The position numbers and the translations under genes are program-made. From a virus (taxonomy: Duplodnaviria; Heunggongvirae; Uroviricota; Caudoviricetes), in the IMG/VR virus record IMGVR_UViG_2585427776_000014: 15,553 nt of DNA. One strand, given 5' to 3'. A model generated the notes under the pieces. That model did no database searches. It saw nothing but the letters and a program-made list of their open reading frames with translations, and had not been told where the DNA came from. Shown piece by piece: positions 1 to 15,553 of this stretch (positions are counted from its first letter, which is position 1; the number at the start of each line of letters is the position of its first letter).

Positions 1-71
1 ACCAAAGCATGACATCTCTGTTTCGCACCGAAGGTGACACTTCTGCTTTGCGTTGACAGGAGAAGCAGGCT

Positions 72-227
72 ATGAAGCAGCAAAAGGCGATGTTAATCGC
101 CCTGATCGTCATCTGTTTAACCGTCATAGTGACGGCACTGGTAACGAGGAAAGACCTCTGCGAGGTACGAATCCGAACCGGCCAGACGGAGGTCGCTGTC
201 TTCACAGCTTACGAACCTGAGGAGTAA
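72..227 (+). CDS. hokD: Hok-family type I toxin, 51 aa
   Basis: ATG at 72 with AGGAG at 57-61. Translation MKQQKAMLIALIVICLTVIVTALVTRKDLCEVRIRTGQTEVAVFTAYEPEE has the Hok/Gef layout (N-terminal TM helix, conserved Cys, acidic tail). Absent from the ORF track because it is under 60 aa. Position next to rem fits the K-12 relB-relE-hokD locus. Confidence 0.9.
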   Translation: MKQQKAMLIALIVICLTVIVTALVTRKDLCEVRIRTGQTEVAVFTAYEPEE

Positions 228-296
228 GAGACCCGGCGGGGGAGAAATCCCTCGCCACCTCTGATGTGGCAGGCATCCTCAACGCACCCGCACTTA

Positions 297-323
297 ACCC
301 GCTTCGGCGGGTTTTTGTTTTTA
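297..323 (+). terminator. Rho-independent terminator downstream of hokD
   Basis: GC stem CCCGC(298-302)/GCGGG(307-311) with TTCG loop, followed by TTTTTGTTTTT (312-322). Confidence 0.5.
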
Positions 324-443
324 TTTTCAACGCGTTTGAAGTTCTGGACGGTGCCGGAATAGAATCAAAAATACTTAAGTAGCGCGCAGGGATAAGAGGG
401 ATGGTCCCTTAAAGGGGAGAGCTAATTATCCGGAAGGATTCTG

Positions 444-695
444 ATGATGAACATCGAAGAACTGCGTAAAATTTTTTGTGAAGATGGCCTCTATGCTGTG
501 TGCGTTGAAAATGGAAATCTTGTTAGTCATTACCGCATTATGTGTTTGCGAAAGAATGGGGCTGCGTTAATTAATTTTGTGGATGCTCGGGTCACGGACG
601 GATTTATCTTGCGCGAAGGTGAGTTTGTCACTTCATTACAGGCATTGAAAGAGATCGGAATAAAAGCTGGCTTTTCTGCTTTTTCAGGAGAATAA
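444..695 (+). CDS. rem: Small prophage protein Rem, 83 aa, function unknown
   Basis: ORF track 444..695; GGAAGG at 433-438 as RBS. Length and position between hokD and ydfU match K-12 rem as I recall it. Confidence 0.75.
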   Translation: MMNIEELRKIFCEDGLYAVCVENGNLVSHYRIMCLRKNGAALINFVDARVTDGFILREGEFVTSLQALKEIGIKAGFSAFSGE

Positions 696-761
696 ACTCA
701 TCTACAATCTTGCGCGGGGCTGAACTCCCGCTGAGTAACACCGTGCCACCGGAGAAAACCG

Positions 762-1040
762 ATGGCACGCAACGCAAAATATTACAATTCTGATAATTCG
801 CCCGTTCTTGCCTGCACGCACGGGCGGTATTCTCACGCATTCAAGTCTGAATGGTTCCAGCACCCTCCATGCACTGCAGAACAGGCCGAATGGCTGATTC
901 ATTCTTACCGCAGGCGCGGGTTCGAGGTTAAGAAAGCTCTCAGTCTCGACTATCGGCACTGGATAATCTCTGTCAGGCTGCCTTATTCCGAACGCCCACC
1001 ACGTGCGTCCCGCACTTTCCAGCAACGGATCTGGAGGTAA
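762..1040 (+). CDS. Hypothetical 92-aa protein, possibly unannotated; translationally coupled to ydfU
   Basis: ATG at 762 with GGAG at 751-754 (7-nt spacing). Stop TAA at 1038-1040 lies one base before the ydfU GTG at 1042. I do not recall a named K-12 gene here. Confidence 0.4.
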   Translation: MARNAKYYNSDNSPVLACTHGRYSHAFKSEWFQHPPCTAEQAEWLIHSYRRRGFEVKKALSLDYRHWIISVRLPYSERPPRASRTFQQRIWR

Positions 1041-1041
1041 C

Positions 1042-2091
1042 GTGCGGGTATTACTTAGACCTGTTCTGGTGCCTGAGCTTGGGCTGGTGGTCCTTAAGCC
1101 GGGCCGTGAATCCATACAGATATTTCATAATCCTCGAGTGCTGGTGGAACCGGAACCAAAAAGCATGCGTAATCTGCCATCCGGAGTCGTTCCTGCCGTT
1201 CGCCAGCCGCTGGCGGAAGACAAAACATTGCTGCCGTTTTTTAGTAACGAACGGGTGATTCGTGCTGCTGGCGGCGTTGGCGCATTGTCCGACTGGCTAT
1301 TACGTCATGTTACATCCTGCCAGTGGCCTAATGGCGATTACCATCACACTGAAACAGTCATTCACCGTTATGGTACCGGCGCAATGGTGTTGTGCTGGCA
1401 CTGCGACAACCAACTGCGTGACCAGACATCGGAATCACTGGAGCTGCTTGCTCAACAAAATCTGACAGCATGGGTGATTGACGTCATCCGTCACGCAATA
1501 AGCGGTACGCAGGAGCGGGAATTATCTTTGGCTGAATTATCCTGGTGGGCGGTCTGCAATCAGGTGGTGGATGCACTACCTGAGGCTGTATCGCGTCGTT
1601 CGCTGGGATTACCAGCGGAAAAAATCTGCTCGGTGTACCGCGAAAGCGACATCGTACCGGGAGAGCAGACCGCCACCAGCATATTGAAACAACGCACAAA
1701 AAATCTTGCACCGTTGCCTTACGCCCACCAGCAACAAAAATCACCACAGGAAAAGACGGTGGTAAGCATCACCGTTGATCCAGAGTCTCCGGAATCTTTC
1801 ATGAAGCTGCCTAAACGTCGCCGCTGGGTTAAGGAGAAATACACACGTTGGGTTAAGACACAGCCGTGTGCTTGCTGCGGTATGCCAGCCGACGATCCGC
1901 ATCATCTGATTGGTCACGGGCAGGGCGGAATGGGAACAAAAGCACATGATCTCTTTGTGTTGCCTTTGTGCAGAAAGCATCACAACGAGCTGCATACGGA
2001 TACAGTGGCATTTGAAGATAAGTATGGCTCCCAACTGGAGCTGATATTTCGTTTTATCGATCGCGCGCTGACAATTGGCGTACTGGCGTAA
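1042..2091 (+). CDS. ydfU: Prophage protein YdfU (DUF968-like), 349 aa, with a Cys/His-rich C-terminal motif
   Basis: Track ORF 1003..2091; preferred start is GTG at 1042 with GGAGG at 1033-1037, giving 349 aa. C-terminus carries CACCG...DPHHL...CRKHHNELH. Sits in the nin-region position immediately upstream of Q. Confidence 0.8.
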   Translation: MRVLLRPVLVPELGLVVLKPGRESIQIFHNPRVLVEPEPKSMRNLPSGVVPAVRQPLAEDKTLLPFFSNERVIRAAGGVGALSDWLLRHVTSCQWPNGDYHHTETVIHRYGTGAMVLCWHCDNQLRDQTSESLELLAQQNLTAWVIDVIRHAISGTQERELSLAELSWWAVCNQVVDALPEAVSRRSLGLPAEKICSVYRESDIVPGEQTATSILKQRTKNLAPLPYAHQQQKSPQEKTVVSITVDPESPESFMKLPKRRRWVKEKYTRWVKTQPCACCGMPADDPHHLIGHGQGGMGTKAHDLFVLPLCRKHHNELHTDTVAFEDKYGSQLELIFRFIDRALTIGVLA

Positions 2092-2104
2092 GTGGAGAAC
2101 GAGC

Positions 2105-2857
2105 ATGAACCTTGAAGCCTTACCAAAATATTACTCCCCAAAATCTCCAAAATTGAGCGATGACGCTCCAGCGACAGGCACCGGTTGTTTAACAATTACG
2201 GATGTAATGGCAGCGCAGGGGATGGTGCAGTCGAAAGCACCACTTGGGTTGGCCTTATTTCTGGCAAAAGTTGGTGTTCAGGACCCTCAGTTTGCGATTG
2301 AAGGCCTGCTAAATTACGCGATGGCACTGGATAACCCGACATTGAACAAATTGAGTGAAGAAATCCGGTTACAGATTATTCCTTACCTCGTGAGTTTTGC
2401 CTTTGCTGATTACTCCAGGTCTGCGGCAAGTAAGGCTCGCTGTGAGCATTGTTCAGGTACGGGATTTTATAATGTATTGCGCGAAGTGGTGAAACACTAC
2501 AGACGCGGGGAATCTGTAATCAAGGAAGAATGGGTGAAGGAACTATGTCAGCATTGCCATGGTAAGGGCGAAGCCAGCACAGCGTGCAGAGGGTGTAAGG
2601 GTAAAGGGATTGTTCTGGATGAAAAAAGAACCCGGTTTCATGGCGTACCGGTATATAAGATTTGTGGGCGTTGTAATGGAAACCGGTTTAGTCGTTTACC
2701 GACCACGCTGGCACGACGTCATGTCCAGAAGCTGGTACCAGACCTGACCGATTATCAGTGGTATAAGGGGTATGCGGACGTCATTGGTAAACTGGTAACA
2801 AAGTGCTGGCAGGAAGAAGCATACGCGGAAGCGCAATTGAGGAAGGTGACGAGATAA
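2105..2857 (+). CDS. quuQ: Late-gene antiterminator Q (phage 82/21-type), 250 aa
   Basis: Track ORF 2075..2857; ATG at 2105 with GGAGA at 2093-2097 gives 250 aa. Contains four CxxCxGxG-type Cys pairs. Located directly upstream of a strong promoter plus terminator, then the lysis genes. Confidence 0.85.
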   Translation: MNLEALPKYYSPKSPKLSDDAPATGTGCLTITDVMAAQGMVQSKAPLGLALFLAKVGVQDPQFAIEGLLNYAMALDNPTLNKLSEEIRLQIIPYLVSFAFADYSRSAASKARCEHCSGTGFYNVLREVVKHYRRGESVIKEEWVKELCQHCHGKGEASTACRGCKGKGIVLDEKRTRFHGVPVYKICGRCNGNRFSRLPTTLARRHVQKLVPDLTDYQWYKGYADVIGKLVTKCWQEEAYAEAQLRKVTR

Positions 2858-2888
2858 ATGATTTTTGCTGAAGATGGCGACATGATGT

Positions 2889-2917
2889 TTGCATTTTTCA
2901 AAAAATATGGATAAAAT
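2889..2917 (+). promoter_or_regulatory. Candidate late promoter (PR'-like) downstream of Q
   Basis: TTGCAT (2889-2894), 17-nt spacer, TAAAAT (2912-2917). It occupies the position where lambdoid phages place PR' and the Q-utilisation site. Confidence 0.45.
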
Positions 2918-2963
2918 TTTTTCAACGATGGGCTTTGTATACCCGACGTTAAGAAAAAGTAGA

Positions 2964-2993
2964 AAACCCGCTGATGAGCGGGTTTTGTGCTTT
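2964..2993 (+). terminator. Rho-independent terminator about 40 nt after the candidate late promoter (tR'-like)
   Basis: Stem AAACCCGC (2964-2971)/GCGGGTTT (2978-2985) with loop TGATGA, followed by a T-rich tract. It would yield a short leader RNA unless Q-modified polymerase reads through. Confidence 0.5.
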
Positions 2994-3278
2994 AAATGGG
3001 GCAATGGTAATGTTGAATCTCATCCCGGGACTCATGTCTGTTAACTTATTATTTAGCTGGTGACTTGGTTATTTGCCTGATGTTTAAAATGTTTTCTTCC
3101 AGTACAATGTCCCTAAACACAATGAGTCTGCTTATTATATTATTAGCAGAGCTATTACGGCCAAAGTACAGCATAAGCTTTTAAAGCCAATCAACCAGTC
3201 ATCAAGACAGACGGGGTTATTCATAAAAACTCTCCATGTGTGATCCGATGGGGCCTGAAATTAAAGCTTTAATATAGC

Positions 3279-3491
3279 TCATGAAAGGTAAACATTGGCA
3301 GCTGAAGGGCCACGCAGACCATTTATCCGGCAAAATTCCACGCGTAATCCGGTGGTAATTTCTTCTGCATCGCGGAGATTGAGCGCTGAAACATGAAGCT
3401 GGACATCGATACGACCATCGGATGGGGTGATAAGACCCTTGCCGCTTTTGCCGTCAAAGGTTTTGACAATTCCTGTCATTTTACGGGACAA
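3279..3491 (-). CDS. cspF: Cold-shock protein family member CspF, 70 aa
   Basis: Track [29 protein letters not shown]... has the cold-shock-domain fold signature but a divergent RNP1 motif. Divergently arranged with cspB, as in K-12. Confidence 0.9.
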
Positions 3492-3791
3492 AAAAATTCC
3501 TTAATACTGATAACTTGGCGCACTATACACACGTTCCTGAAGAAAGCTATAGTTTTTTGATGGGGTTGAAGATGGCTGGATGTCTAAAATAAACATTGCT
3601 TCATATGTTCAACTATGCGTTAATGATTGCGTCGGTTTGAAGAACAGACGATATACGAAGTAGTTTACTAAAGCAGTTCTCATTTCAGGTGTTATTCACT
3701 TATTCCTTCTTTGAGTCTCTCCAATTAAGTACGAAGTCGTTTCTGTTATGCAAACCATTTATGCCGAAAGGCTCAAGTTAAGGAATGTAGA

Positions 3792-4007
3792 ATGTCAAAT
3801 AAAATGACTGGTTTAGTAAAATGGTTTAACGCTGATAAAGGTTTCGGCTTTATTTCTCCTGTTGATGGTAGTAAAGATGTGTTTGTGCATTTTTCTGCGA
3901 TTCAGAATGATAATTATCGAACCTTATTTGAAGGTCAAAAGGTTACCTTCTCTATAGAGAGTGGTGCTAAAGGTCCTGCAGCAGCAAATGTCATCATTAC
4001 TGATTAA
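3792..4007 (+). CDS. cspB: Cold-shock protein CspB, 71 aa
   Basis: [38 protein letters not shown]... carries the canonical CspA-family RNP1 (KGFGFI) and RNP2 (VFVHF) motifs; a roughly 300-nt AT-rich upstream region precedes it. Confidence 0.95.
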
Positions 4008-4118
4008 AATTCATCGCTCGTCTGTATACGATAACGAAGAAGGCTGATGCCTGAGTAGAGATACGGACAGAGTAGTGAATATTGGATCTCTTTAATAAAA
4101 AGTAAGGAGGTCCAATAC

Positions 4119-4154
4119 ATGAAACAATGGCTAGCATATTTGGCAAAATCTTAA
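4119..4154 (+). CDS. Candidate 11-codon small ORF (MKQWLAYLAKS) behind a perfect Shine-Dalgarno
   Basis: TAAGGAGGT at 4103-4111, 7-nt spacer, ATG at 4119, TAA at 4152-4154. Coding status is unproven. Confidence 0.3.
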   Translation: MKQWLAYLAKS

Positions 4155-4288
4155 TCAGGAAAAGTATGCTAACCATTGTGGTGAAGTGCAGGTTTGCTGC
4201 ATGAATAGTTTTACAGCAGAAGCTAACTGCTGGCATGGCAAAACAAAGTGCGTAAGTGGATGACTCCCACAAAAAGCACCACAATCTC

Positions 4289-4315
4289 AAACCCGCTCAG
4301 GCGGGGTTTTTATTA
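4289..4315 (+). terminator. Rho-independent terminator about 280 nt downstream of cspB
   Basis: Stem CCCGC (4292-4296)/GCGGG (4301-4305) with loop TCAG, followed by TTTTTATTAT. Confidence 0.5.
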
Positions 4316-4370
4316 TCTGCTTTAAATATATTATTAAAATATAAAAAATACTTGTTACTAATAAAATCAA

Positions 4371-4541
4371 TCAGGCTACAGCTTTAAGATTTGTCTGGAA
4401 TACTTTGTTGCAATGAGGGCAGATCAAAAGGGCACCTTTTTGTACTCTTGAAAAACTGTGTTCTGACTCTTGGGTGCAGTTTGGGCAGGAACATTTAACG
4501 AGATAATTACGGCGTGATTTTGAGTTTTTACGTTCTGACAT
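4371..4541 (-). CDS. ynfU: 56-aa zinc-ribbon small protein (two CxxC-type pairs)
   Basis: Minus-strand ORF; preferred start is the internal ATG giving MSERKNSKSRRNYLVKCSCPNCTQESEHSFSRVQKGALLICPHCNKVFQTNLKAVA, with AGGA about 9 nt upstream. The symbol ynfU is from memory of the K-12 small-protein catalogue and is uncertain. Confidence 0.55.
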   Translation of the reverse strand: MSERKNSKSRRNYLVKCSCPNCTQESEHSFSRVQKGALLICPHCNKVFQTNLKAVA

Positions 4542-4760
4542 AGGCTTTTCCTGTATAAATGGCCGTATACAGTACACTAAATATGAAAACATTTCTCGTA
4601 TTATTATTTTATATATGACTTTCTTTCAAAATAATTACCCACATTTTTAATGTGTATGTTTTTTTAGCGCCGTTGAGAACAACGTGTGCTGTCAAAACTA
4701 CCCCGTAGACTCCGATCTTTTCAAACATATTGCACCATCCGTGTACATCGGGGTGAGGAT

Positions 4761-4976
4761 ATGAAATCAATGGATAAGTTAACAACAGGTGTTGCCTATG
4801 GCACATCGGCGGGTAATGCTGGTTTCTGGGCATTGCAGTTACTCGATAAAGTAACTCCGTCACAGTGGGCTGCAATCGGTGTGCTGGGTAGCCTGGTTTT
4901 TGGCCTGCTGACGTATCTGACAAATCTTTATTTCAAGATTAAAGAAGACAGGCGTAAGGCTGCGAGAGGAGAGTAA
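4761..4976 (+). CDS. essQ: Pinholin (phage 21 S21-like class II holin), 71 aa, with dual-start motif
   Basis: [26 protein letters not shown]...[13 protein letters not shown]: Met1-Lys2-Ser3-Met4 dual start, two TM segments and a charged C-terminus. Closely resembles phage 21 S as I recall it. The track ORF 4686..4976 extends upstream of the likely start. Confidence 0.9.
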
Positions 4977-4980
4977 TCCA

Positions 4981-5288
4981 ATGACTCAAGACTATGAACT
5001 GGTTGTGAAAGGAGTCCGTAATTTTGAGAATAAAGTTACGGTAACTGTAGCCTTACAGGACAAAGAACGCTTTGACGGTGAAATTTTTGACCTGGATGTC
5101 GCCATGGACCGTGTTGAAGGAGCTGCGCTGGAGTTTTATGAGGCAGCAGCCAGAAGGAGCGTCCGGCAAGTCTTCCTGGAAGTAGCAGAAAAATTGTCAG
5201 AAAAAGTTGAGTCTTATCTGCAGCATCAGTACTCCTTTAAGATTGAAAATCCTGCCAATAAGCACGAGCGTCCTCATCATAAATATCT

Positions 5289-5292
<4 letters not shown>
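4981..5292 (+). CDS. ydfR: Prophage protein YdfR, 103 aa, function unknown, inserted between holin and endolysin
   Basis: Track ORF with AGGAGAG RBS at 4964-4970. Its stop overlaps the rrrQ start in an ATGA arrangement at 5289-5292. Confidence 0.85.
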
Positions 5293-6316
<1,024 letters not shown>

Positions 6317-6542
6317 GGTAATATTAAATCGGAACATTTACATCGCGGAATGTAAAATTTAAATAAAAAGGACTCTTCCATGAGCCAAAATTCCTGAAAT
6401 CTTAAGGGTAAGATAAAAGGTCTTAATCAGAATGACACGTTTTATTAATAAATAAAGCTATTCTTTCATTGCTGTGTTTTTCTTTACAAAAGTAATCCTT
6501 GCTATGGGTGGTTAATCATGCGTTAATGGTGTTCTGGTTTGT

Positions 6543-6575
6543 TACAAATTTATCTGAAGCAGTCATTGTTATAAT
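6543..6575 (+). promoter_or_regulatory. Candidate cspI promoter with extended -10
   Basis: TGTTATAAT at 6567-6575 (TGn plus TATAAT); the -35 is weak (TTACAA at 6543-6548, non-optimal spacing). About 100 nt upstream of the cspI ATG. Confidence 0.3.
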
Positions 6576-6678
6576 TTTATTATTTGTACCTCTTGAGATT
6601 TCCTTGTTGGTTTTTCTCTCTGATATTTTTTTTCGGACCATTCTGCCCAAGGGCTAATTTCTTCAAAAGGTAATAATT

Positions 6679-6891
6679 ATGTCTAACAAAATGACTGGTT
6701 TAGTGAAATGGTTTAACCCTGAAAAAGGTTTTGGTTTCATCACGCCGAAAGATGGCAGCAAAGATGTGTTTGTCCATTTCTCAGCAATTCAGAGCAACGA
6801 TTTCAAAACATTAACTGAGAATCAGGAAGTTGAATTTGGTATTGAGAACGGACCTAAAGGTCCTGCCGCTGTTCATGTAGTGGCGCTTTGA
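6679..6891 (+). CDS. cspI: Cold-shock protein CspI, 70 aa
   Basis: [38 protein letters not shown]... has canonical RNP1/RNP2 motifs; a long AT-rich upstream region precedes it. Confidence 0.95.
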
Positions 6892-7090
6892 GGTAGACAA
6901 TATTACAAACCATATTCACTTTAGATGCCCGTGTTGTCATGGTTCCCAGTATAGAACATCATCTTTTGATGTTTCTGACATGAATCCTTTCGGGGCAAAA
7001 TGTATCTTTTGTAAATCAATGATGATTACATTTGATAATATTTCACAATACTTAAATGCCAGCCGTCTGTCGTTGGATTTAAAAAAGTGA
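6881..7090 (+). pseudogene. Start-less zinc-ribbon ORF, paralog of the 4371-4541 protein, lying in the cspI 3' region
   Basis: Frame open 6881-7090 reads ...HFRCPCCHGSQYRTSSFDVSDMNPFGAKCIFCKSMMITFDNISQYLNASRLSLDLKK*. It shares the C-x-C-x1-2-C ... SF ... C-x2-C pattern with the 56-aa ORF. No ATG/GTG/TTG precedes the first Cys cluster; the only in-frame ATG (6980) would give 36 aa lacking the first Cys pair. Confidence 0.45.
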
Positions 7091-7096
7091 AAATGA

Positions 7097-7119
7097 AGGC
7101 TCCTTCGGGAGCTTTTTTG
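7097..7119 (+). terminator. Rho-independent terminator closing the cspI/zinc-ribbon transcript
   Basis: Stem GGCTCC (7098-7103)/GGAGCT (7108-7113) with loop TTCG, followed by TTTTT (7114-7118). Confidence 0.5.
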
Positions 7120-7237
7120 CTTGGTGTCTATTCGATGGATACTCACATACTACGGTAACATCATGAAAAAAATCATAGTTTTTTTTAACTCTGAACCAGC
7201 AGTGGTAGTGCCAGCGATGACTGGAGTTAACACCATC

Positions 7238-7393
7238 ATGCGTGAATATCCAAATGGCGAAAAAACACACCTTACTGTAATGGCCGCAGGGTTTCCATCT
7301 CTGACCGGAGATCATAAAGTCATTTATGTAGCCGCGGATCGACATGTTACTTCAGAAGAAATTCTGGAAGCAGCAATAAGGCTCTTGAGTTGA
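7238..7393 (+). CDS. ynfN: Small prophage protein YnfN, 51 aa (the same frame is open from an ATG at 7163, which would give 76 aa)
   Basis: In-frame ATG at 7238 gives MREYPNGEKTHLTVMAAGFP...AAIRLLS, 51 aa, matching my recollection of ynfN next to cspI. The start is uncertain. Confidence 0.6.
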   Translation: MREYPNGEKTHLTVMAAGFPSLTGDHKVIYVAADRHVTSEEILEAAIRLLS

Positions 7394-7564
7394 TTTGATG
7401 CTATTGCATTGATAATTCAGGAAAATTCTCTTTGTCTGTTTGTGTAAAATTTAGACTATCGTATGTTGATTATTGCGATGTTTCATCTTATCTTTTACAC
7501 GTTTGCACCATATAATCGACTTACTGTGTAACTGGAAAGTCATAACAGACTAAAAGAGGAAATG

Positions 7565-7738
7565 ATGAATATTGAAAACTTAAAAACAAAAGCAGAAGCA
7601 GATATTTCTGAATATATAACAAAAAAAATTATTGAACTTAAGAAAAAGACCGGGAAAGAAGTTACCAGTATTCAGTTTACCGCACGGGAAAAAATGACGG
7701 GTCTTGAAAGCTATGATGTCAAGATTAATTTAATCTGA
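7565..7738 (+). CDS. gnsB: GnsA/GnsB-family small protein, 57 aa
   Basis: MNIENLKTKAEADISEYITKKIIELKKKTGKEVTSIQFTAREKMTGLESYDVKINLI; an alternative start lies one codon upstream at 7562. Absent from the ORF track because it is under 60 aa. Confidence 0.85.
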   Translation: MNIENLKTKAEADISEYITKKIIELKKKTGKEVTSIQFTAREKMTGLESYDVKINLI

Positions 7739-7889
7739 TGTATTCAATAATAAAATTTATCCATAAACCTCGTTTTTACGGGGTTTTGTTATATTTGAAT
7801 GGTTCCGAATATCTAAATCACAATTGTTGATGGTTTTTATTAAACCAATGCAGTCCGGCTCAGGAGTGAGAGAAGCCGGACGTTATGGT

Positions 7890-8300
7890 TTAGCGTGGTA
7901 AGATCTGTGTAGTTTTCTGGATGCTTTCAGTAAATAGTAATGAATTATCAAAGGTATAGTAATATCTTTTTTGTTCGTGGATATTTGTAACCCACCGAAA
8001 AACTCCTGCTTTAGCAAGGTTTCTTCTGTATTCCTGAAATGTGATCTCTCTGGATTTCAGCTTATTAGAGGTCGTTTCTATAAGATGCCTATCCTTTGAA
8101 AATTTGACAGACACAATGTTTTTTAGGCCCTTTAATAACACTGTATTATCATTTTTTAATACAATATGAACATTCTCTGTGGCTAAATAGTAAATGTAAT
8201 GTGAGACATTGTGACGTTTTAGCTCAGAATAAAACCATTGATAGTTTAAATCGTTTCGAACTTTATCAAATATTTGTTTAAAAATGACTACCTGATCCAT
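7890..8300 (-). CDS. ydfO: DUF1398-family prophage protein YdfO, 136 aa
   Basis: Track ORF 7890..8315 (141 aa); the internal Met giving MDQVVIFKQ... yields 136 aa, the length I recall for ydfO. Confidence 0.8.
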
Positions 8301-8357
8301 AGATAAACCTTCCATGTGATATGAGGGGGCGTAGTCTGCACGATTATCTAAATTGCT

Positions 8358-8591
8358 TCAATCTGGTCTGACCTGTTTTCTGAGCAATTCAGTAATGTCA
8401 CTCTTTTCTTTGTTTGCTTCAGAAGAAACTCTTTTTTCTGAGCACAGTCTCCGGCGGCAGGCTTCAATGACCCAGGCTGAGAAATTCCCGGACCCTTTTT
8501 GCTCAAGAGCGATGTTAATTTGTTCAATCATTTGGTTAGGAAAGCGGATGTTGCGGGTTGTTGTTCTGCGGGTTCTGTTCTTCGTTGACAT
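8358..8591 (-). CDS. ynfO: Small prophage protein YnfO, 77 aa, with a ribbon-helix-helix-like core
   Basis: The RNIRFPNQMIEQINIALEQKGSGNFSAWVIEACRRRL segment fits a strand-helix-turn-helix RHH (Arc/MetJ/CopG-like) pattern. The fold assignment is inference. Confidence 0.7.
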   Translation of the reverse strand: MSTKNRTRRTTTRNIRFPNQMIEQINIALEQKGSGNFSAWVIEACRRRLCSEKRVSSEANKEKSDITELLRKQVRPD

Positions 8592-8759
8592 GAGGTTGCC
8601 CCGTATTCAGTGTCGCTGATTTGTATTGTCTGAAGTTGTTTTTACGTTAAGTTGATGCAGATCAATTAATATGATACCTGCGTCATAATTGATTATTTGA
8701 CGTGGTTTGATGGCGTAGATGCACGTTGTGACATGCAGATGATAATTATTATCATTTTG

Positions 8760-8960
8760 CGGGTCCTTTCCGGCGATCCGACAGGTTACGGGGCGGCGAC
8801 CTCGCGGGTTTTCGCTATTTATGAAAATTTTCCGGTTTAAGGCATTTCCGTTCTTCTTCGTCGTAACTTAATGTTTTTATTTAAAATACCCCCTGAAAAG
8901 AAAGGAAACGACAGGTGCTGAAAACGAGCTTTTGGGCCTCTGTCGTTTCCTTTCTCTGTT
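8760..8960 (+). other. Lambda-type cos site: cosQ region, cosN with the 12-nt cohesive end GGGCGGCGACCT (8791-8802), and cosB (R3, I1, R2, R1)
   Basis: ...CGACAGGTTACG|GGGCGGCGACCTCGCGGGTTTTCGCTATTTATGAAAATTTTCCGG... matches the joined right and left ends of phage lambda as I recall them. Nu1-binding repeats: R3 about 8843-8860, R2 about 8901-8914, R1 about 8940-8954, directly upstream of the Nu1 homolog. Confidence 0.85.
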
Positions 8961-8979
8961 TTTGGCCGTGGAATGAACA

Positions 8980-9525
8980 ATGGAAGTCAACAAAAAGCAG
9001 CTGGCTGACATTTTCGGTGCGAGTATCCGTACCATTCAGAACTGGCAGGAACAGGGAATGCCCGTTCTGCGAGGCGGTGGCAAGGGTAATGAGGTGCTTT
9101 ATGACTCTGCCGCCGTTATAAGATGGTATGCCGAAAGGGATGCTGAAATTGAGAACGAAAAGCTGCGCCGGGAAGTTGAAGAACTGCGGCAGGCCAGCGA
9201 GACAGATCTCCAGCCAGGGACTATTGAGTACGAACGCCATCGACTTACGCGTGCGCAGGCCGACGCACAGGAGCTGAAAAATGCCAGAGACTCCGCTGAA
9301 GTGGTGGAAACCGCATTCTGTACTTTCGTGCTGTCGCGGATCGCAGGTGAAATTGCCAGTATTCTCGACGGGATCTCCCTGTCGGTGCAGCGGCGTTTTC
9401 CGGAACTGGAAAACCGACATGTTGATTTCCTGAAACGGGATATCATCAAAGCCATGAACAAAGCAGCCGCGCTGGATGAACTGATACCGGGGTTGCTGAG
9501 TGAATATATCGAACAGTCAGGTTAA
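8980..9525 (+). CDS. nohA: Terminase small subunit (lambda Nu1 homolog), 181 aa
   Basis: MEVNKKQLADIFGASIRTIQNWQEQGMPVLRGGGKGNEV... is near-identical to lambda gpNu1 as recalled, with a winged-HTH N-terminus. Its 3' end overlaps the start of the A gene, as in lambda. Confidence 0.95.
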   Translation: MEVNKKQLADIFGASIRTIQNWQEQGMPVLRGGGKGNEVLYDSAAVIRWYAERDAEIENEKLRREVEELRQASETDLQPGTIEYERHRLTRAQADAQELKNARDSAEVVETAFCTFVLSRIAGEIASILDGISLSVQRRFPELENRHVDFLKRDIIKAMNKAAALDELIPGLLSEYIEQSG

Positions 9526-10717
9526 CAGGCTGCGGCATTTTGTCCGCGCCGGGCTTCGCTCACTGTTCAGGCCGGAGCCACAGACCGCCGTTGAATGGGC
9601 GGATGCTAATTACTATCTCCCGAAAGAATCCGCATACCAGGAAGGGCGCTGGGAAACACTGCCCTTTCAGCGGGCCATCATGAATGCGATGGGCAGCGAC
9701 TACATCCGTGAGGTGAATGTGGTGAAGTCTGCCCGTGTCGGTTATTCCAAAATGCTGCTGGGTGTTTATGCCTACTTTATAGAGCATAAGCAGCGCAACA
9801 CCCTTATCTGGTTGCCGACGGATGGTGATGCCGAGAACTTTATGAAAACCCACGTTGAGCCGACCATCCGCGATATTCCGTCGCTGCTGGCGCTGGCTCC
9901 GTGGTATGGCAAAAAGCACCGGGATAACACGCTCACTATGAAGCGTTTTTCCAATGGTCGTGGCTTCTGGTGCCTGGGCGGTAAAGCGGCAAAAAACTAC
10001 CGTGAAAAGTCGGTGGATGTGGCGGGTTATGATGAACTTGCTGCCTTTGATGAGGATATTGAACAGGAAGGCTCTCCGACGTTCCTTGGCGACAAACGTA
10101 TTGAAGGCTCGGTCTGGCCAAAGTCCATCCGTGGCTCCACGCCCAAAGTGAGAGGCACCTGCCAGATTGAGCGTGCAGCCAGTGAATCCCTGCATTTTAT
10201 GCGTTTTCATGTTGCCTGCCCGCACTGCGGGGAGGAGCAGTATCTTAAATTTGGCGACAAAGAGACGCCGTTTGGCCTCAAATGGACGCCGGATGACCCC
10301 TCCAGCGTGTTTTATCTCTGCGAGCATAATGCCTGCGTCATCCGCCAGCAGGAGCTGGACTTTACTGATGCCCGTTATATCTGCGAAAAGACCGGGATCT
10401 GGACCCGTGATGGCATTCTCTGGTTTTCGTCATCCGGTGAAGAGATTGAGCCGCCGGACAGTGTGACCTTTCACATCTGGACGGCGTACAGCCCGTTCAC
10501 CACCTGGGTGCAGATTGTCAAAGACTGGATGAAGACGAAAGGGGATACGGGAAAACGTAAAACCTTCGTGAACACCACGCTCGGTGAGACATGGGAAGCG
10601 AAAATCGGCGAACGTCCGGATGCTGAGGTGATGGCGGAGCGGAAAGAGCATTATTCAGCGCCCGTTCCTGACCGTGTGGCTTATCATCAGTTAATCTGGC
10701 TTCAAAAGGTCGGGTAA
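9500..10717 (+). pseudogene. Terminase large subunit (lambda gpA) fragment, about the first 396 codons, then 10 unrelated codons and a stop
   Basis: MNISNSQVNRLRHFVRAGLRSLFRPEPQTAVEWADANYYLPKESAYQEGRW... tracks lambda A through ...PVPDRVAY, then diverges ([10 protein letters not shown]). Lambda A is about 641 aa, so the nuclease domain is missing. Junction at about 10686. Confidence 0.9.
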
Positions 10718-10767
10718 CCGCGCTGACAGACAATACGCAGGGGGCAGCAGGTCTTGAGTTATACGAG

Positions 10768-11670
10768 GTGTATAACAACGGATATCCAACAGCGTATGGA
10801 AATATCATTCACCTGAAAGGGATGACAGCCGTTGGCGAAGGTGAGTTACTCATCGGCTGGAGTGGTACAAGCGGTGCTCATGCTCCGGCATTTATTCGTT
10901 CACGACGGGATACGACCGACGCAAACTGGTCGCCGTGGGCGCAGCTTTACACCTCGGCTCATCCTCCTGCAGAGTTTTATCCAGTCGGTGCACCAATCCC
11001 GTGGCCATCAGATACCGTTCCGTCTGGTTATGCCCTGATGCAGGGGCAGACTTTTGACAAATCTGCATACCCGAAACTTGCAGTTGCTTATCCGTCAGGC
11101 GTGATCCCTGATATGCGTGGCTGGACGATTAAGGGCAAGCCCGCCAGTGGTCGGGCCGTATTATCTCAGGAACAGGACGGCATTAAATCGCACACCCACA
11201 GCGCCAGCGCATCCAGTACGGATTTGGGGACGAAAACCACATCGTCGTTTGATTACGGAACCAAATCCACGAATAACACCGGGGCGCATACCCATAGTAT
11301 TAGCGGGACCGCAAATAGTGCCGGTGCGCACCAACACAAGAGTTCCGGTGCATTTGGTGGCACGAACACGAGCATTTTCCCTAATGGTTATACCGCGATT
11401 TCAAATCTAAGCGCGGGGATTATGAGCACAACAAGCGGTAGTGGCCAGACTCGTAATGCAGGGAAGACATCATCAGATGGTGCTCATACCCACTCGCTGT
11501 CCGGCACTGCTGCAAGCGCAGGCGCACATGCACATACTGTCGGTATTGGTGCTCATACGCACTCCGTTGCGATTGGTTCACATGGACACACCATCACCGT
11601 TAACGCTGCTGGTAACGCGGAAAACACCGTCAAAAACATCGCATTTAACTATATTGTGAGGCTTGCATAA
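10768..11670 (+). CDS. stfQ: Side tail fibre C-terminal (receptor-binding) fragment; frame is open from 10672 with no canonical start before GTG at 10768
   Basis: 300-aa frame containing seven His-x-His motifs (GAHTHS and variants) typical of T4 gp37/lambda Stf distal tips. It is 5'-truncated by the same deletion that cut the A gene. TAATG overlap with tfaQ at 11668-11672. Confidence 0.75.
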
Positions 11671-12245
11671 TGGCATTCAGAATGAGTGAACAACCACGGA
11701 CCATAAAAATTTATAATCTGCTGGCCGGAACTAATGAATTTATTGGTGAAGGTGATGCATATATTCCGCCTCATACAGGTCTGCCAGCAAACAGTACCGA
11801 TATTGCACCGCCAGATATTCCGGCTGGCTTCGTGGCTGTTTTCAACAGTGATGAGTCATCGTGGCATCTCGTTGAAGATCATCGGGGTAAAACGGTTTAT
11901 GACGTGGCTTCCGGCGACGCGTTATTTATTTCTGAACTCGGTCCGTTACCGGAAAATGTTACCTGGTTATCGCCGGAAGGGGAGTTTCAGAAGTGGAACG
12001 GCACAGCCTGGGTGAAGGATACGGAAGCAGAAAAACTGTTCCGGATCCGGGAGGCGGAAGAAACAAAAAACAACCTGATGCAGGTAGCCAGTGAGCATAT
12101 TGCGCCGCTTCAGGATGCTGCAGATCTGGAAATTGCAACGGAGGAAGAAATCTCGTTGCTGGAAGCATGGAAAAAGTATCGGGTATTGCTGAACCGTGTT
12201 GATACGTCAACTGCACAGGATATTGAATGGCCAGCACTACCGTAG
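11670..12245 (+). CDS. tfaQ: Tail fibre assembly protein (Tfa chaperone), 191 aa
   Basis: Track [51 protein letters not shown]...; Tfa-family N-terminus, position directly after stf. Confidence 0.9.
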
Positions 12246-12342
12246 GGTAAAACATATAAATTCTATAATTAGATGTATCTTTCCATTTACGGCAAGGAAG
12301 GGGGCTTGGAAGACGTAAAGCATCTCACACCGAGATTATTTT

Positions 12343-12933
12343 TTATATGTCAGGTGTCTGAAGTTTTGCTTTGGCTCTTAAAATGGTTTGCCGCGAGGTT
12401 TTGAATTCCCGGGCAATGGCACTTATACTTACACCTGACTTAATTCGTTCGAATACCGCCTGTTTCTGTTCTTCATTTAACACAGGTGGTCGACCAAAAC
12501 GTTTCCCTGCGCCGCGGGCTCTTACTATCCCGGAATGAGTGCGTTCAAGTAAAAGGTCTCGTTCAAATTCAGCGACTGCTGAAATTACTTGCATCATCAT
12601 TTTTCCTGTTGGACTGGTCAGGTCAATGCCCCCCAATGCTAAGCAATGCACTCTGATACCTGTTTCGGTCAGTTGTTCCACTGTTTTCCTGATATCCATT
12701 GCATTACAACCAAGGCGATCCAGTTTTGTCACAATCAATTGATCACCACATTTCAGGCGAGCAAGCAACCGGTTAAAACCAGGACGCTCACTGGTTGCTG
12801 CTGAGCCGCTAATGTGTTCTTCGATTATTTGCTGAGGTTTGATTTTAAAACCTGCACTTTCGATTTCCCGGCGTTGATTTTCGGTGGTCTGATCCAGCGT
12901 TGATATCCGACAGTAAGCAAAAATTTGAGACAT
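12343..12933 (-). CDS. pinQ: Serine recombinase, DNA invertase (Pin/Gin/Hin/Cin family), 196 aa
   Basis: [29 protein letters not shown]...: catalytic Ser in the YxRxSTxxQ motif, resolvase catalytic domain and C-terminal HTH ([20 protein letters not shown]). Confidence 0.95.
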
Positions 12934-13249
12934 AGTGAGACTCTATACGAAATTGGTGTTCATATCATAATGCATCTCAGAAAATAATTATGATTATTTT
13001 TGTGCATATTTGTATGTACACGTTCGAAAATAAACGAATGCGTATGCAACCCCGTAATTTTGGTGAGACCCAAAATCGATTTTGTGAAAAATGGCTTTAA
13101 CTCGGTTTGTTTTTCGAGTTCCGGGCGGACTCAAGGAAGAAGAATAGTGTTGCGTGTTATTTTAACCAGATTTCAAGTTGTTTGGTCGTGGAAAAGTGGA
13201 GCAAAATGTTGTTAAAGTGGAAAAATGATAAAAAAGTAAGTTTATTATA

Positions 13250-13483
13250 TTACATTTTACCATTTAAATTTTGGTTGTCTTTAAGAACTGATATCGCTGT
13301 TTGTAATAATTCTTTGTTATCCAGCCATGATTTTTTCTTTATGTTTCCTTCAATGTAATCAAGCAATGTTCTGGTATTGATAGGTCTTCCCTGTTTTGCT
13401 ACTTCCACTACAGCATCCCCTAGGATAATTCTTACTTCAGGAAGCTGCGCAGGGAACCACTTTAGGGTGTCTTTTGATTTCAT
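13250..13483 (-). CDS. ydfK: Small prophage protein YdfK (YnaE/YdfK family, cold-shock-induced in K-12), 77 aa
   Basis: Track ORF 13250..13516 (88 aa); the internal Met giving MKSKDTLKWFPAQ... yields 77 aa, the length I recall for ydfK. Confidence 0.75.
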   Translation of the reverse strand: MKSKDTLKWFPAQLPEVRIILGDAVVEVAKQGRPINTRTLLDYIEGNIKKKSWLDNKELLQTAISVLKDNQNLNGKM

Positions 13484-14269
13484 GAAGATATTCCTTAAAA
13501 TATTATTGATTTTCATTGCGATATTGTATGTCTGATTCAGGATATGTTGACTTATACATCGGTTTTGTCTGGGTTATTGGATATGCCAATCCCTAATTTT
13601 ATTAGGGCATGACTAAAAATGCTGAATATGATAAGGAGAGATGTGATTATCAGTATGCTGTTCATATAGCCTCGAATTAGTAATGTGTTATATATGATAT
13701 AGTTGACAATTTTTATCTTGGGTGTTCTTAAAGTTCGTAGATAAACATTGTCGTTTCAGGTATACAGGAATGCTAACAGGTGGCAGCAAAAATCAGGCGG
13801 TTTATGGCGCAAGCTGAAGCGGCAACTGCAAACTATCTTATGCAGAGACTCTACACGGATTGGGTTTAAAAGTATACATAGATAACAGTTTTTATCTGAA
13901 AAAGAAAAATATCAAGGTGATATAGCCTATATGCCTTTGATGCGGAGGAATGAATGTGATGGGAGTGATGTATCTGAATAGTTGAAAAACCGCAGACACG
14001 CCTTATGCAAGAACGTGCTGCGATTGGCTGGTAAATTTTTCGATAGTGTGAGTATTGAATGATTTCCAGCCGTTCTTGATTTTACGCATAAATCCATGAA
14101 AAAACTACTTATCTGTTGGGGAGTTTTTTTGGGGCATATATGGGACAGAAATAGGCCCCAGATAGACACTGAGATCGAACTTAGGATGCTTTTTAAAAAA
14201 ATGCAACTATCTGAAAAAACCTAGAAAACGCCAAGGAAACCACAGGATGGGAAAAAACACCTGTGAATT

Positions 14270-15553
14270 ATGGATTTCCAGTTATATTCGCTCGGCGCAG
14301 CGTTAGTGTTTCATGAAATATTTTTTCCTGAATCATCAACGGCAATGGCGTTAATTCTGGCAATGGGAACCTACGGTGCAGGTTATGTGGCGCGTATTGT
14401 CGGAGCATTTATTTTCGGCAAAATGGGCGACAGAATAGGGCGTAAAAAAGTGCTCTTTATTACCATCACCATGATGGGGATCTGTACCACCTTAATTGGT
14501 GTGTTACCGACCTATGCACAGATTGGTGTTTTTGCACCCATCTTGCTGGTGACGTTGCGTATTATTCAGGGGTTGGGTGCAGGTGCGGAAATTTCCGGTG
14601 CCGGTACGATGCTGGCGGAATATGCGCCAAAAGGTAAGCGCGGAATTATCTCCTCATTTGTGGCTATGGGAACTAACTGCGGAACCTTGAGCGCAACGGC
14701 AATCTGGGCCTTTATGTTCTTCATTCTCAGTAAAGAGGAACTGCTGGTGTGGGGATGGCGTATACCGTTCCTGGCGAGTGTTGTCGTGATGGTCTTTGCT
14801 ATCTGGTTGCGTATGAATCTGAAAGAAAGCCCGGTCTTTGAGAAGGTTAACGACAGTAACCAACCGACAGCAAAACCTGCACCTGCTGGTAGCATGTTCC
14901 AGAGCAAATCCTTCTGGCTGGCAACAGGGCTGCGTTTTGGTCAGGCGGGTAACTCCGGGTTAATTCAGACTTTCCTTGCAGGCTATTTAGTGCAGACGTT
15001 ATTGTTTAACAAAGCAATTCCAACAGATGCATTGATGATCAGTTCGATTCTCGGCTTTATGACCATTCCGTTCCTTGGTTGGTTATCCGATAAAATTGGT
15101 CGCCGGATCCCGTATATTATTATGAATACCTCCGCGATTGTGCTGGCATGGCCAATGCTTTCTATCATTGTAGATAAAAGCTATGCCCCGAGCACCATTA
15201 TGGTTGCACTGATTGTGATTCATAACTGTGCGGTGCTGGGATTATTTGCTCTGGAAAACATTACCATGGCAGAAATGTTCGGCTGTAAAAACCGCTTTAC
15301 CCGGATGGCTATTTCTAAAGAAATTGGTGGTCTTATCGCTTCCGGTTTTGGTCCTATCCTGGCGGGTATTTTCTGCACCATGACGGAATCCTGGTATCCG
15401 ATCGCCATTATGATCATGGCATATTCAGTGATTGGTTTAATCTCTGCGCTGAAAATGCCAGAGGTGAAAGACCGTGATTTAAGTGCGCTGGAAGACGCTG
15501 CGGAAGATCAACCGCGTGTTGTAAGAGCTGCGCAACCTTCCAGAAGTCTGTAA
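14270..15553 (+). pseudogene. ydfJ: MFS transporter of the metabolite:H+ symporter family (ProP/KgtP/ShiA-like), 5'-truncated at the prophage junction; 427-codon intact frame
   Basis: 12-TM-type sequence. The first residues MDFQLYSLGAALVF...FFP align with the conserved EWFDFGVYGF...FFP motif that in family members sits about 30 residues into the protein; a stop codon lies immediately upstream (14264-14266). ORF ends exactly at the window end (TAA 15551-15553). It may still be expressed as a truncated protein. Confidence 0.7.

Follow-up and report, generated by a model that had tools for sequence, protein, structure and literature searches.

A 15,553-nt stretch of viral DNA (hereafter the window) carries a deletion junction at which the large terminase gene A of a lambda-type packaging module is joined, with mismatched reading frames, to the distal part of a side-tail-fibre gene (stf). 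Sequence comparison identifies the stretch as the packaging end of the Escherichia coli cryptic prophage Qin (Kim), inserted in ydfJ, and the scar is of the kind that decaying prophages ordinarily leave, in a rare version eroded less than that of K-12. We consider it highly probable that a PhiR42_1-like ancestor lost 19,930 bp, which left a gutted Qin remnant with a lambda-type cos. The scar joining the truncated A gene (A') to the truncated stf gene (stf') is already known in kind and of low interest, and it is one stage among nested and independent deletions found at the locus in other strains.

Identity and setting of the locus

The window shows an insertion in ydfJ, the Qin gene order and 99.8–99.9% identity to K-12 Qin, and the gene order from relE to ydfJ' in RefSeq is annotated as Qin genes. 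By comparison of sequences, positions 8429–12245 are what is left of the right arm of a lambdoid prophage of the Qin type (Table 1). The prophage ends at approximately 14278–14281; homology to PhiR42_1 stops at 14281, a point that adjoins int in PhiR42_1. The original prediction, made from the letters of the DNA, identified neither the known Qin prophage nor the similar annotated scar of K-12 (nohD-aaaD'-tfaD in DLP12).

Table 1. Features at the packaging end of the prophage, in window coordinates
Feature	Position	Strand	Evidence or remark
Right-end homologue of the lambda chromosome (non-coding, before cos)	8429–8790	+	Within the ungapped 97.3% alignment with lambda; 100% identical to PhiR42_1
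cosQ, GGGTCCT	8761–8767	+	Same as lambda at bp -29 to -23
cosN, 12-nt cohesive end GGGCGGCGACCT (lambda bp 1–12)	8791–8802	+	Sole match in the window
cosB, Nu1-binding repeats R3, R2 and R1	8843–8955	.	Whole region identical to PhiR42_1
R3	8843–8854	+	One G>A change from lambda, also in PhiR42_1
R2	8899–8910	-	Match to CGTTTCCKTTCT
R1	8944–8955	+	Match to CGTTTCCKTTCT
nohA, intact small terminase subunit Nu1, 181 aa	8980–9525	+	Pfam Phage_Nu1; RefSeq nohA
A', truncated large terminase gene	9500–10717	+	GTG start at 9500; stop codon 10715–10717
Deletion junction, dinucleotide TA	10682–10683	.	Alignment of the window with both A and stf of PhiR42_1
stf', about the last 328 codons of the side-tail-fibre gene	10684–11670	+	Homology to PhiR42_1 and lambda stf
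tfaQ, intact tail-fibre assembly gene	11670–12245	+	Pfam Caudo_TAP; RefSeq annotation
pinQ, serine recombinase (invertase family)	12343–12933	-	Pfam Resolvase and HTH_7; RefSeq annotation
ydfJ', host gene split by the prophage	14270–15553	+	K-12 Qin annotation mapped onto the window

The junction between A and stf

The 2,255 bp from 8429 to 10683 align without a gap to lambda, at 97.3% identity, and cover its right end, cos, Nu1 and A as far as codon 395. In a search against a phage collection, the homology to A stopped at query base 2044, which corresponds to position 10683. The TA at the junction is common to codon 395 of A and codon 698 of stf and thus constitutes a 2-bp microhomology, across which the two reading frames do not match. 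Since a TGA precedes it at 10669–10671, the stf frame is open from 10672; its first possible start codon within stf' is the GTG at 10768. The fibre segment is 98.9% identical to positions 45320–45944 of PhiR42_1 within stf and 87–94% identical to the C-terminal part of lambda stf. It carries a Collar domain and C-terminal fibre repeats and lacks the N-terminal phage_tail_N domain (PF08400) of a complete Stf; PhiR42_1 Stf has phage_tail_N at residues 3–136 together with Phage_fiber_2 repeats, both of which are absent from stf'. Among 5,426 complete genomes, only 3 have this junction; strains of the window type include TOE17, AST46 and DLI.5a. Its identical occurrence in three independent complete genomes excludes an assembly artefact.

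All the checkable elements described in the original prediction were found, either exactly where it had put them or within 3 bases. Its roughly 396 lambda-like A codons proved to be 395, and the end of A homology, expected at about 10686, falls at 10683/10684. The stop of the A frame at 10717 and the second frame, open from 10672 into the C-terminal part of stf, are as it described them. The comparison with lambda that it proposed revealed similarity at cos and no A homology past 10700. The fusion of A to a tail fibre is real as a join of DNA, although not as a fusion of proteins: A' ends 10 codons beyond the junction. The comparison confirms that a reader without tools can locate the scar of a prophage deletion with an error of no more than 3 bases.

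A complete lambda-type cos beside an intact nohA

The cohesive end GGGCGGCGACCT was expected 0.04 times by chance in the window and occurs once, flanked by sequence that equals that of lambda from bp -16 to +53. A cohesive-end search of the window for a second cos found none. The R repeat CGTTTCCKTTCT has three matches against 0.15 expected, in the lambda order and orientation; R2 and R1 together make up an inverted repeat of 26 nt, and the interval between R3 and R2 corresponds to the place of IHF site I1 in lambda. Together with the GGGTCCT heptamer, which we take to be the lambda cosQ, the region thus comprises cosN with its flanks, cosQ and a three-repeat cosB. Positions 8690–8990 are 100% identical to the cos region of PhiR42_1. 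Since this cos equals that of a propagated phage base for base, and the N-terminal DNA-binding part of Nu1 equals that of lambda, the complete cos of lambda specificity is probably still functional.

The product of nohA matches Phage_Nu1 (PF07471) over profile positions 1–164 of 164 (E = 3e-100) in an intact frame and differs from lambda Nu1 by four amino acid changes (K48R, A75T, L132I and P133S). The lambda-like character predicted for cosN, the Nu1-binding repeats and Nu1 is consequently borne out by the ungapped alignment at 97.3%, the R matches and Pfam. In contrast to nohA, A' is incomplete, with 395 native codons (three amino acid differences from lambda) followed by 10 foreign codons and a stop. 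Its GpA_ATPase domain (PF05876) is complete (residues 47–285, E = 7e-51) and has the same extent as in lambda gpA, whereas the match to GpA_nuclease (PF20454) covers only profile positions 2–78 of 294, as against 2–286 in lambda gpA. Because the nuclease domain is partial and the native sequence ends at residue 395 of 641, short of a complete endonuclease domain and the C-terminal end, A' is a truncated remnant of the gpA family rather than a functional member. PGAP labels it "terminase gpA endonuclease subunit, missing C-terminus". The terminase had been predicted to lack its nuclease domain; no working nuclease domain is left, but the first quarter of it is kept.

Proposed deletion from a PhiR42_1-like ancestor

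Window positions 1–10683, with cos, Nu1 and A codons 1–395 included, are 99.96% identical to PhiR42_1 (PV340562), with four mismatches. Homology to this phage restarts at its position 45320 within stf, with a 2-bp overlap, and PhiR42_1 also shares the stf tip region, tfa, pin and an att region that matches the ydfJ junction. Lambda resembles the window at cos, Nu1 and A, at the 97.3% given above. Both differ from the window as complete phages, which possess the 19.9 kb of morphogenesis genes absent from it. The PhiR phages form plaques and serve as a panel of phages related to lambda (bioRxiv 10.1101/2025.11.03.685801), and our guess is that the PhiR numbers refer to ECOR strains.

Relative to PhiR42_1, the window is missing the C-terminus of A, the genes W, B, C/Nu3, D, E, FI, FII, Z, U, V, G, T, H, M, L, K, I, J and lom, and 697 codons at the N-terminus of stf. 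It retains the complete cos, the intact nohA, the out-of-frame A' stub, the fibre tip, tfaQ and pinQ. An ancestor like the temperate phage PhiR42_1 would have undergone an illegitimate, microhomology-mediated deletion at the 2-bp TA, which would have removed the span from codon 395 of A to codon 698 of the 1,025-codon stf. PhiR42_1 is not the exact parent, because its stf tip differs from that of the window (98.2–98.9% identity, with a patch at 11307–11473 that could not be aligned). The resulting element presumably can neither build virions nor cut its own cos.

Other alleles and the number of deletions

K-12 Qin resembles the window in site, gene order and sequence, with 99.8–99.9% identity over positions 1–9508 and 10715–15553, and has the cos site, nohA, tfaQ and pinQ in common with it. 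It differs in the loss of positions 9509–10716, and its junction lies 12 codons deeper in stf. Because these 1,208 bp across the junction are absent, K-12 has no A' stub; its stfQ consists of the first three codons of A joined in frame to stf, and the 3' end of its nohA is altered. The reference Qin junction of K-12 (nohA–stfQ) reads as a more eroded state of a scar still carried by a few natural isolates. The locus as a whole carries at least three independent primary deletions in addition to nested secondary ones, a tidy natural series for the study of cryptic prophage decay.

The junction records only the last event, which may have been the sole deletion or the latest of several. The scar may be the product of at least two nested deletions, a serious possibility, if somewhat less likely than not; for example, a deletion from the end of A into lom could have come first, and a second one, with endpoints at codon 395 of A and codon 698 of stf, would then have swallowed the A–lom junction. 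Strain MLI105 has at the same locus a junction between A (26116) and lom (42925) whose endpoints enclose those of the window, on a haplotype 99.93–99.96% identical to it. Further nested states are found in strain 1223 (25257/45545) and K-12 (24216/45355), and the less deleted alleles are the rarer ones, in 1, 3, 48 and at most 371 genomes. However, one 19.9-kb deletion from an intact ancestor accounts equally well for the junction, the sampling of laboratory strains skews the allele counts, and the SNP haplotypes of the alleles are mosaic, so that the allele order is not proven. The left flank of K-12 is that of the B-JRPT-4119 allele and its right flank is nearest to the window and WP2 alleles, indicating that the alleles have recombined. 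The original prediction that one deletion or recombination took all head and tail genes is thus correct as to the genes lost, while "single" is only the simplest reading, with MLI105 as a possible intermediate.

Possible consequences for packaging

With an intact cos of lambda specificity, as argued above, an infecting lambda-type phage could cut at the site, and it is plausible that a lambda-type helper can do so. Lambda packaging proceeds from cos in the Nu1-to-A direction; packaging in situ would therefore take stf', tfaQ and pinQ and then ydfJ and host DNA, while the body of the prophage lies on the opposite side of cos. After a cut by a helper, packaging would proceed rightward; it would reach the end of the prophage after about 5.5 kb and continue through ydfJ into DNA of the host, and without a downstream cos it would not finish a particle. 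The suggestion in the original prediction that a helper lambdoid phage may package the prophage in trans has to be qualified in this respect. A functional chromosomal cos beside host genes bears on recombination with incoming lambdoid phages, for which DLP12 provides a precedent: recombinants between lambda and DLP12 cluster at the prophage cos, which the authors credit to cutting by terminase (PMC3945230). The significance of the locus beyond bookkeeping is slight.

It is very unlikely that the remnant is a satellite-like mobile element that is excised by Int and Xis and packaged by a lambda-type helper via cos. In its favour, cos and Nu1 are undamaged and have the specificity of lambda, and in strain DLI.5a, which has the same junction, the annotation of the opposite prophage end shows int, xis and a recE-like gene as intact. 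The element, however, measures about 23 kb. This is well under the lower packaging limit of lambda, approximately 37 kb, and only multimers would therefore fit; moreover, packaging in situ would leave the body of the prophage behind. The immunity and replication region of DLI.5a is disrupted by an IS fragment and pseudogenes. Satellite-type genes for capsid size or packaging redirection, an own replicon and helper-sensing regulation are not evident from annotation of the window and of DLI.5a. In a PCR check by De Paepe et al., K-12 Qin was not excised during lambda infection (PMC3945230).

We regard it as very improbable that cos, Nu1 and an ATPase-only A' form a domesticated module, acting on superinfecting lambda-type phages or, once a helper cuts at this cos, in directional packaging or recombination of the adjacent chromosome on the ydfJ side. 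A' has kept its ATPase domain and the N-terminal part that interacts with Nu1 but has lost the nuclease domain and its C-terminal end. Such a protein could poison the terminase of a helper, or the chromosomal cos could divert it. If this were true, the recurrent and independent deletions, all of which spare cos–nohA to one side and stf tip–tfaQ–pinQ to the other, would mean selection and not chance.

Clustering of the deletion endpoints

A deletion made by the adjacent serine invertase PinQ, acting on a crossover site of stf together with a pseudo-site of A, was rejected as having next to no probability. In its favour, the overlap at the junction is as long as the stagger of serine recombinases (2 bp), only 1.7 kb separate pinQ from the junction, and the stf endpoints of several alleles are within 80 bp of each other (identical in K-12 and LZYWN_4). 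Against it, neither the surroundings of 10683 nor the interval from tfaQ to pinQ contain a crossover sequence of the Hin/Gin/Pin type (two weak matches elsewhere in the window, against 0.88 expected), no inverted repeat linking the junction region to the tfaQ–pinQ spacer was found, and the allele endpoints vary, with overlaps of 0 to 8 bp. An stf endpoint hotspot (45320–45398, four alleles) was likewise mostly discounted, because the alleles were found by ranking matches on query coverage, which partly explains the clustering. The stf endpoint shared by K-12 and LZYWN_4 remains after this discount.

Comparison with known systems

A search of the literature on nohA, aaaD and stfQ yielded nothing useful. 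A scar of this kind is present in DLP12 of E. coli K-12, which has a lambda-type cos, an intact Nu1 homologue (nohD), a truncated A pseudogene (aaaD') and tail-fibre genes, and likewise has no head or tail genes left. Recombination between lambda and the cos region of DLP12 has been described (PMC3945230). DLP12 is, however, another prophage at another locus, in which a much shorter A stub of 309 nt adjoins tfa and not stf. The cos PICIs of E. coli are also chromosomal elements with a helper-compatible cos and without capsid or tail genes. They differ in their satellite hallmark genes (packaging redirection, capsid-size control and an own replicon), which the annotations of the window and of DLI.5a do not show. 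The element in the window is a decayed full-size prophage, and its resemblance to the cos PICIs is superficial only.

Identity and gene content of the region

Judged by its sequence, the window comprises the right half of Qin (Kim), a cryptic lambdoid prophage, plus the interrupted host gene ydfJ. Compared with the annotated Qin of K-12 MG1655, positions 1–9508 and 10715–15553 show 99.83% and 99.88% identity, respectively; the intervening stretch is missing from K-12, so the window is not a K-12 sequence. The gene content was taken from the RefSeq annotation of the identical stretch in strain DLI.5a. The list opens with relBE, hokD, rem, ydfU, ydfT (Q), cspF, and cspB, and includes the lysis genes essD, ydfR, rrrQ, and rzpQ, as well as cspI, ynfN, gnsB, ydfO, ynfO, and nohA. 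It also contains a "terminase gpA endonuclease subunit" pseudogene with a missing C-terminus and a "phage tail protein" pseudogene with a missing N-terminus, and closes with tfaQ, pinQ, ydfK, ynfT, and ydfJ'. Four cold-shock-type genes (cspB, cspI, cspF, and ydfK) are interspersed among the late genes, and the cspB/cspI paralogues (3792–3982 and 6679–6869) are 73% identical. DLI.5a and AST46 carry an IS5-like insertion (ISKpn26 family) between ynfT and ydfJ' (15585–16781 of the DLI.5a locus), which is absent from the window at about 14224; the window thus derives from neither strain.

The cos site and Nu1

The lambda-like cos–Nu1–A' module proposed in the original prediction was recovered in full: an ungapped alignment of 2,255 bp (window 8429–10683) shows 97.3% identity to lambda, with window positions equal to the lambda coordinate plus 8790, and contains cosN, cosQ, R3, R2, R1, and Nu1. 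The three R motif matches in the window compare with 0.15 expected.

Features of the packaging module and stub genes in the window
Feature	Position	Strand	Remark
cosQ heptamer	8761–8767		same as lambda
cosN cohesive end, GGGCGGCGACCT	8791–8802		sole match within the window; 0.04 expected
R3	8843–8854	+	one G>A change
R2	8899–8910	-	pairs with R1 as a 26-nt inverted repeat
R1	8944–8955	+	pairs with R2 as a 26-nt inverted repeat
Nu1 (nohA)	8980–9525		reading frame intact, 181 aa
A'	9500–10717		GTG start at 9500, as in lambda A; stop at 10715–10717
stf frame	10672–11670		closed upstream by TGA at 10669–10671

Nu1 covers the Pfam Phage_Nu1 profile from end to end. Since it differs from its lambda counterpart only at residues 48, 75, 132, and 133, its N-terminal DNA-binding part is that of lambda. 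Position 9376, in codon 133, is T, unlike in lambda and PhiR42_1, changing the Pro encoded with the lambda C to Ser. The nohA product is WP_032304754.1 in DLI.5a and a different protein, WP_000453611.1, in WP2, 1223, and MLI105; the codon-133 substitution thus looks private to the window-type allele. The cos region (8690–8990) has no base differences from that of PhiR42_1 (PV340562), a temperate phage from a plaque-assay panel of lambda relatives (bioRxiv 10.1101/2025.11.03.685801). On these grounds, both cos and Nu1 are inferred to be functional and of lambda specificity.

The deletion junction

PhiR42_1, which contains the entire Qin gene set together with a complete lambda-like head/tail region, served as the undeleted comparison. 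Window 1–10683 corresponds to PhiR42_1 14709–25391 with 4 mismatches, while window 10682–11306 corresponds to 45320–45944, within a 1,025-codon stf. In a three-way alignment, the join reads GGCT-TA-TCATCAG, in which TA (10682–10683) is common to A codon 395 and stf codon 698. This 2-bp microhomology without filler sequence indicates illegitimate recombination. The 19,930 bp missing relative to PhiR42_1 comprise the A C-terminus, W, B, C/Nu3, D, E, FI, FII, Z, U, V, G, T, H, M, L, K, I, J, lom, and 697 stf codons, in agreement with the proposed loss of the head and tail morphogenesis genes. Across 50,697 phage records, all lambda-like matches end at query base 2044, equivalent to window 10683, and no A homology continues beyond 10700; the predicted coordinates deviate by at most 3 bases and 1 codon, and the predicted A stop and second open frame were located exactly. 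Three independent complete genomes, those of DLI.5a, TOE17, and AST46, share this exact junction, which excludes an assembly error. An origin of the deletion through PinQ was examined and rejected, and the anatomy gives no sign of a novel mechanism.

A' encodes 395 native codons with 3 substitutions, followed by 10 foreign codons. Its GpA_ATPase domain (Pfam) is complete (residues 47–285). The nuclease domain, predicted to be missing, is mostly lost, but GpA_nuclease profile positions 2–78 of 294 remain, versus 2–286 in lambda gpA; all sequence C-terminal to this fragment is also gone. Lacking most of the nuclease domain and the C-terminal end, A' is predicted to be unable to serve as a working terminase. 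The stf' stub retains the Collar domain and the C-terminal fibre repeats (Pfam), but the attachment domain at the N-terminus and the shaft repeats of PhiR42_1 Stf are absent; its translation could begin no earlier than a GTG at 10768. Since A and stf are read in different frames here, the expected fusion of terminase to fibre tip exists as a DNA scar but not as a chimeric protein. With these refinements, the structural interpretation in the original prediction is supported.

A patch of stf' (11307–11473), within the His-rich GAHTH repeat region, aligns to neither PhiR42_1 nor LZYWN_4 and is identical in the K-12, WP2, and B-JRPT-4119 copies, a distribution that indicates mosaic exchange inside the fibre tip. 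In the deposited linear record of PhiR42_1, a sequence of about 780 bp occurs at either end (within 3–1030 and at 47888–48668), each copy matching window 13253–14033, and probably represents an overlap from assembly of a circular molecule. Beside int, similarity to the window extends through position 1030 of the record and reaches the ydfJ junction, consistent with attP there.

Other deletion alleles at the ydfJ locus

The Qin morphogenesis region occurs in at least seven deletion alleles, ranging from MLI105, with nearly all of A and the full stf, to the minimal K-12 form.

Deletion junctions in PhiR42_1 coordinates (A, 24208–26133; stf, 43228–46305); counts are of complete genomes, for queried junctions only
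Allele	Left end	Right end	Genomes	Remark
MLI105	26116	42925	1	A end joined to lom'; whole stf retained
LZYWN_4	26764	45355		portal gene B joined to stf
WP2-S18-ESBL-08	25765	45398
Window	25391	45320	3
Strain 1223 and relatives	25257	45545	48	8-bp microhomology; A::Stf CDS in frame
K-12	24216	45355	at most 371
B-JRPT-4119	25144; 32922	31561; 44780		two deletions; Z', U, V' retained

Judged by these endpoints, the alleles could form two nested series: in one, the MLI105 deletion is followed by that of the window and then by that of 1223; in the other, the window deletion is followed by that of K-12. No nesting with the window allele is possible for WP2, LZYWN_4, or B-JRPT-4119, so a minimum of three primary deletions is required. 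The SNP haplotypes are mosaic, the K-12 left flank being that of B-JRPT and its right flank closest to the window; the proposed order of events is thus plausible but not proven, as is the predicted single deletion for the window scar.

Relative to the window, K-12 lacks 9509–10716 (1,208 bp), with the junction again at TA. Its stfQ (963 nt; 4886–5848 of the K-12 locus, L003) matches window 9500–9508 plus 10717–11670, and joins A codons 1–3 (GTG AAT ATA) in frame to stf codon 710 onward, whereas the window frames are out of register. Accordingly, stfQ uses the gpA start, overlapping the end of nohA. In three alleles, the N-terminus of an upstream gene reads in frame into the stf tip; the gene is A in strain 1223, whereas LZYWN_4 uses B and B-JRPT-4119 uses V.

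K-12 and LZYWN_4 share an identical stf breakpoint directly before ACCGCGCTG (window 10711–10722; 6417/6418 of the LZYWN_4 locus), within the imperfect palindrome CGGGTAACCGCG. Their left endpoints differ, lying at the Nu1/A start in K-12 and in portal gene B in LZYWN_4, and their flanking haplotypes are clearly different. The right side of the B-JRPT-4119 A–Z junction is formed by the similar TAACCGCG. The common breakpoint may reflect coincidence or a deletion hotspot.

Packaging by a helper phage and relation to known systems

In lambda, terminase binds cosB and cleaves cosN, and DNA is then packaged in the direction from Nu1 to A. To finish a particle, lambda needs another cos, oriented alike, about 37–51 kb further downstream. 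No second cos was found within the window. Rightward of cos, the prophage extends for roughly another 5.5 kb, through stf', tfaQ, pinQ, and ydfK, and ends at about 14278, where ydfJ and the chromosome follow; the lysis, Q, and toxin–antitoxin genes lie on the opposite side of cos from the packaging direction. Packaging of the Qin element would require excision and multimerisation of a circle of about 23 kb. At the far prophage end in DLI.5a, the int, xis, and recE-like exonuclease genes are annotated as intact, and the immunity/replication region is broken. In K-12, a PCR check detected no Qin excision during lambda infection (De Paepe et al., PMC3945230). The same study found that lambda × DLP12 recombination junctions cluster at cos, which its authors attributed to terminase cleavage (PMC3945230). 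It is plausible that an infecting lambda cuts the cos of a cryptic prophage. The suggested packaging in trans is thus only partly plausible: helper cutting of the window cos is likely, but productive packaging of the prophage is unlikely.

The feature is the known Qin prophage and is already known in kind: the Nu1 homologue is named nohA, and PGAP marks the A and stf stubs as pseudogenes. The junction itself is a rare, less-eroded allele of the Qin scar. DLP12, the other lambdoid remnant in K-12, bears a like scar, in which nohD is followed by aaaD, a pseudogene formed by an A stub of 309 nt, and then by tfaD. Such remnants reportedly donated Q-S-R-cos segments to lambda in the classical lambda qin and qsr' hybrids described decades ago.
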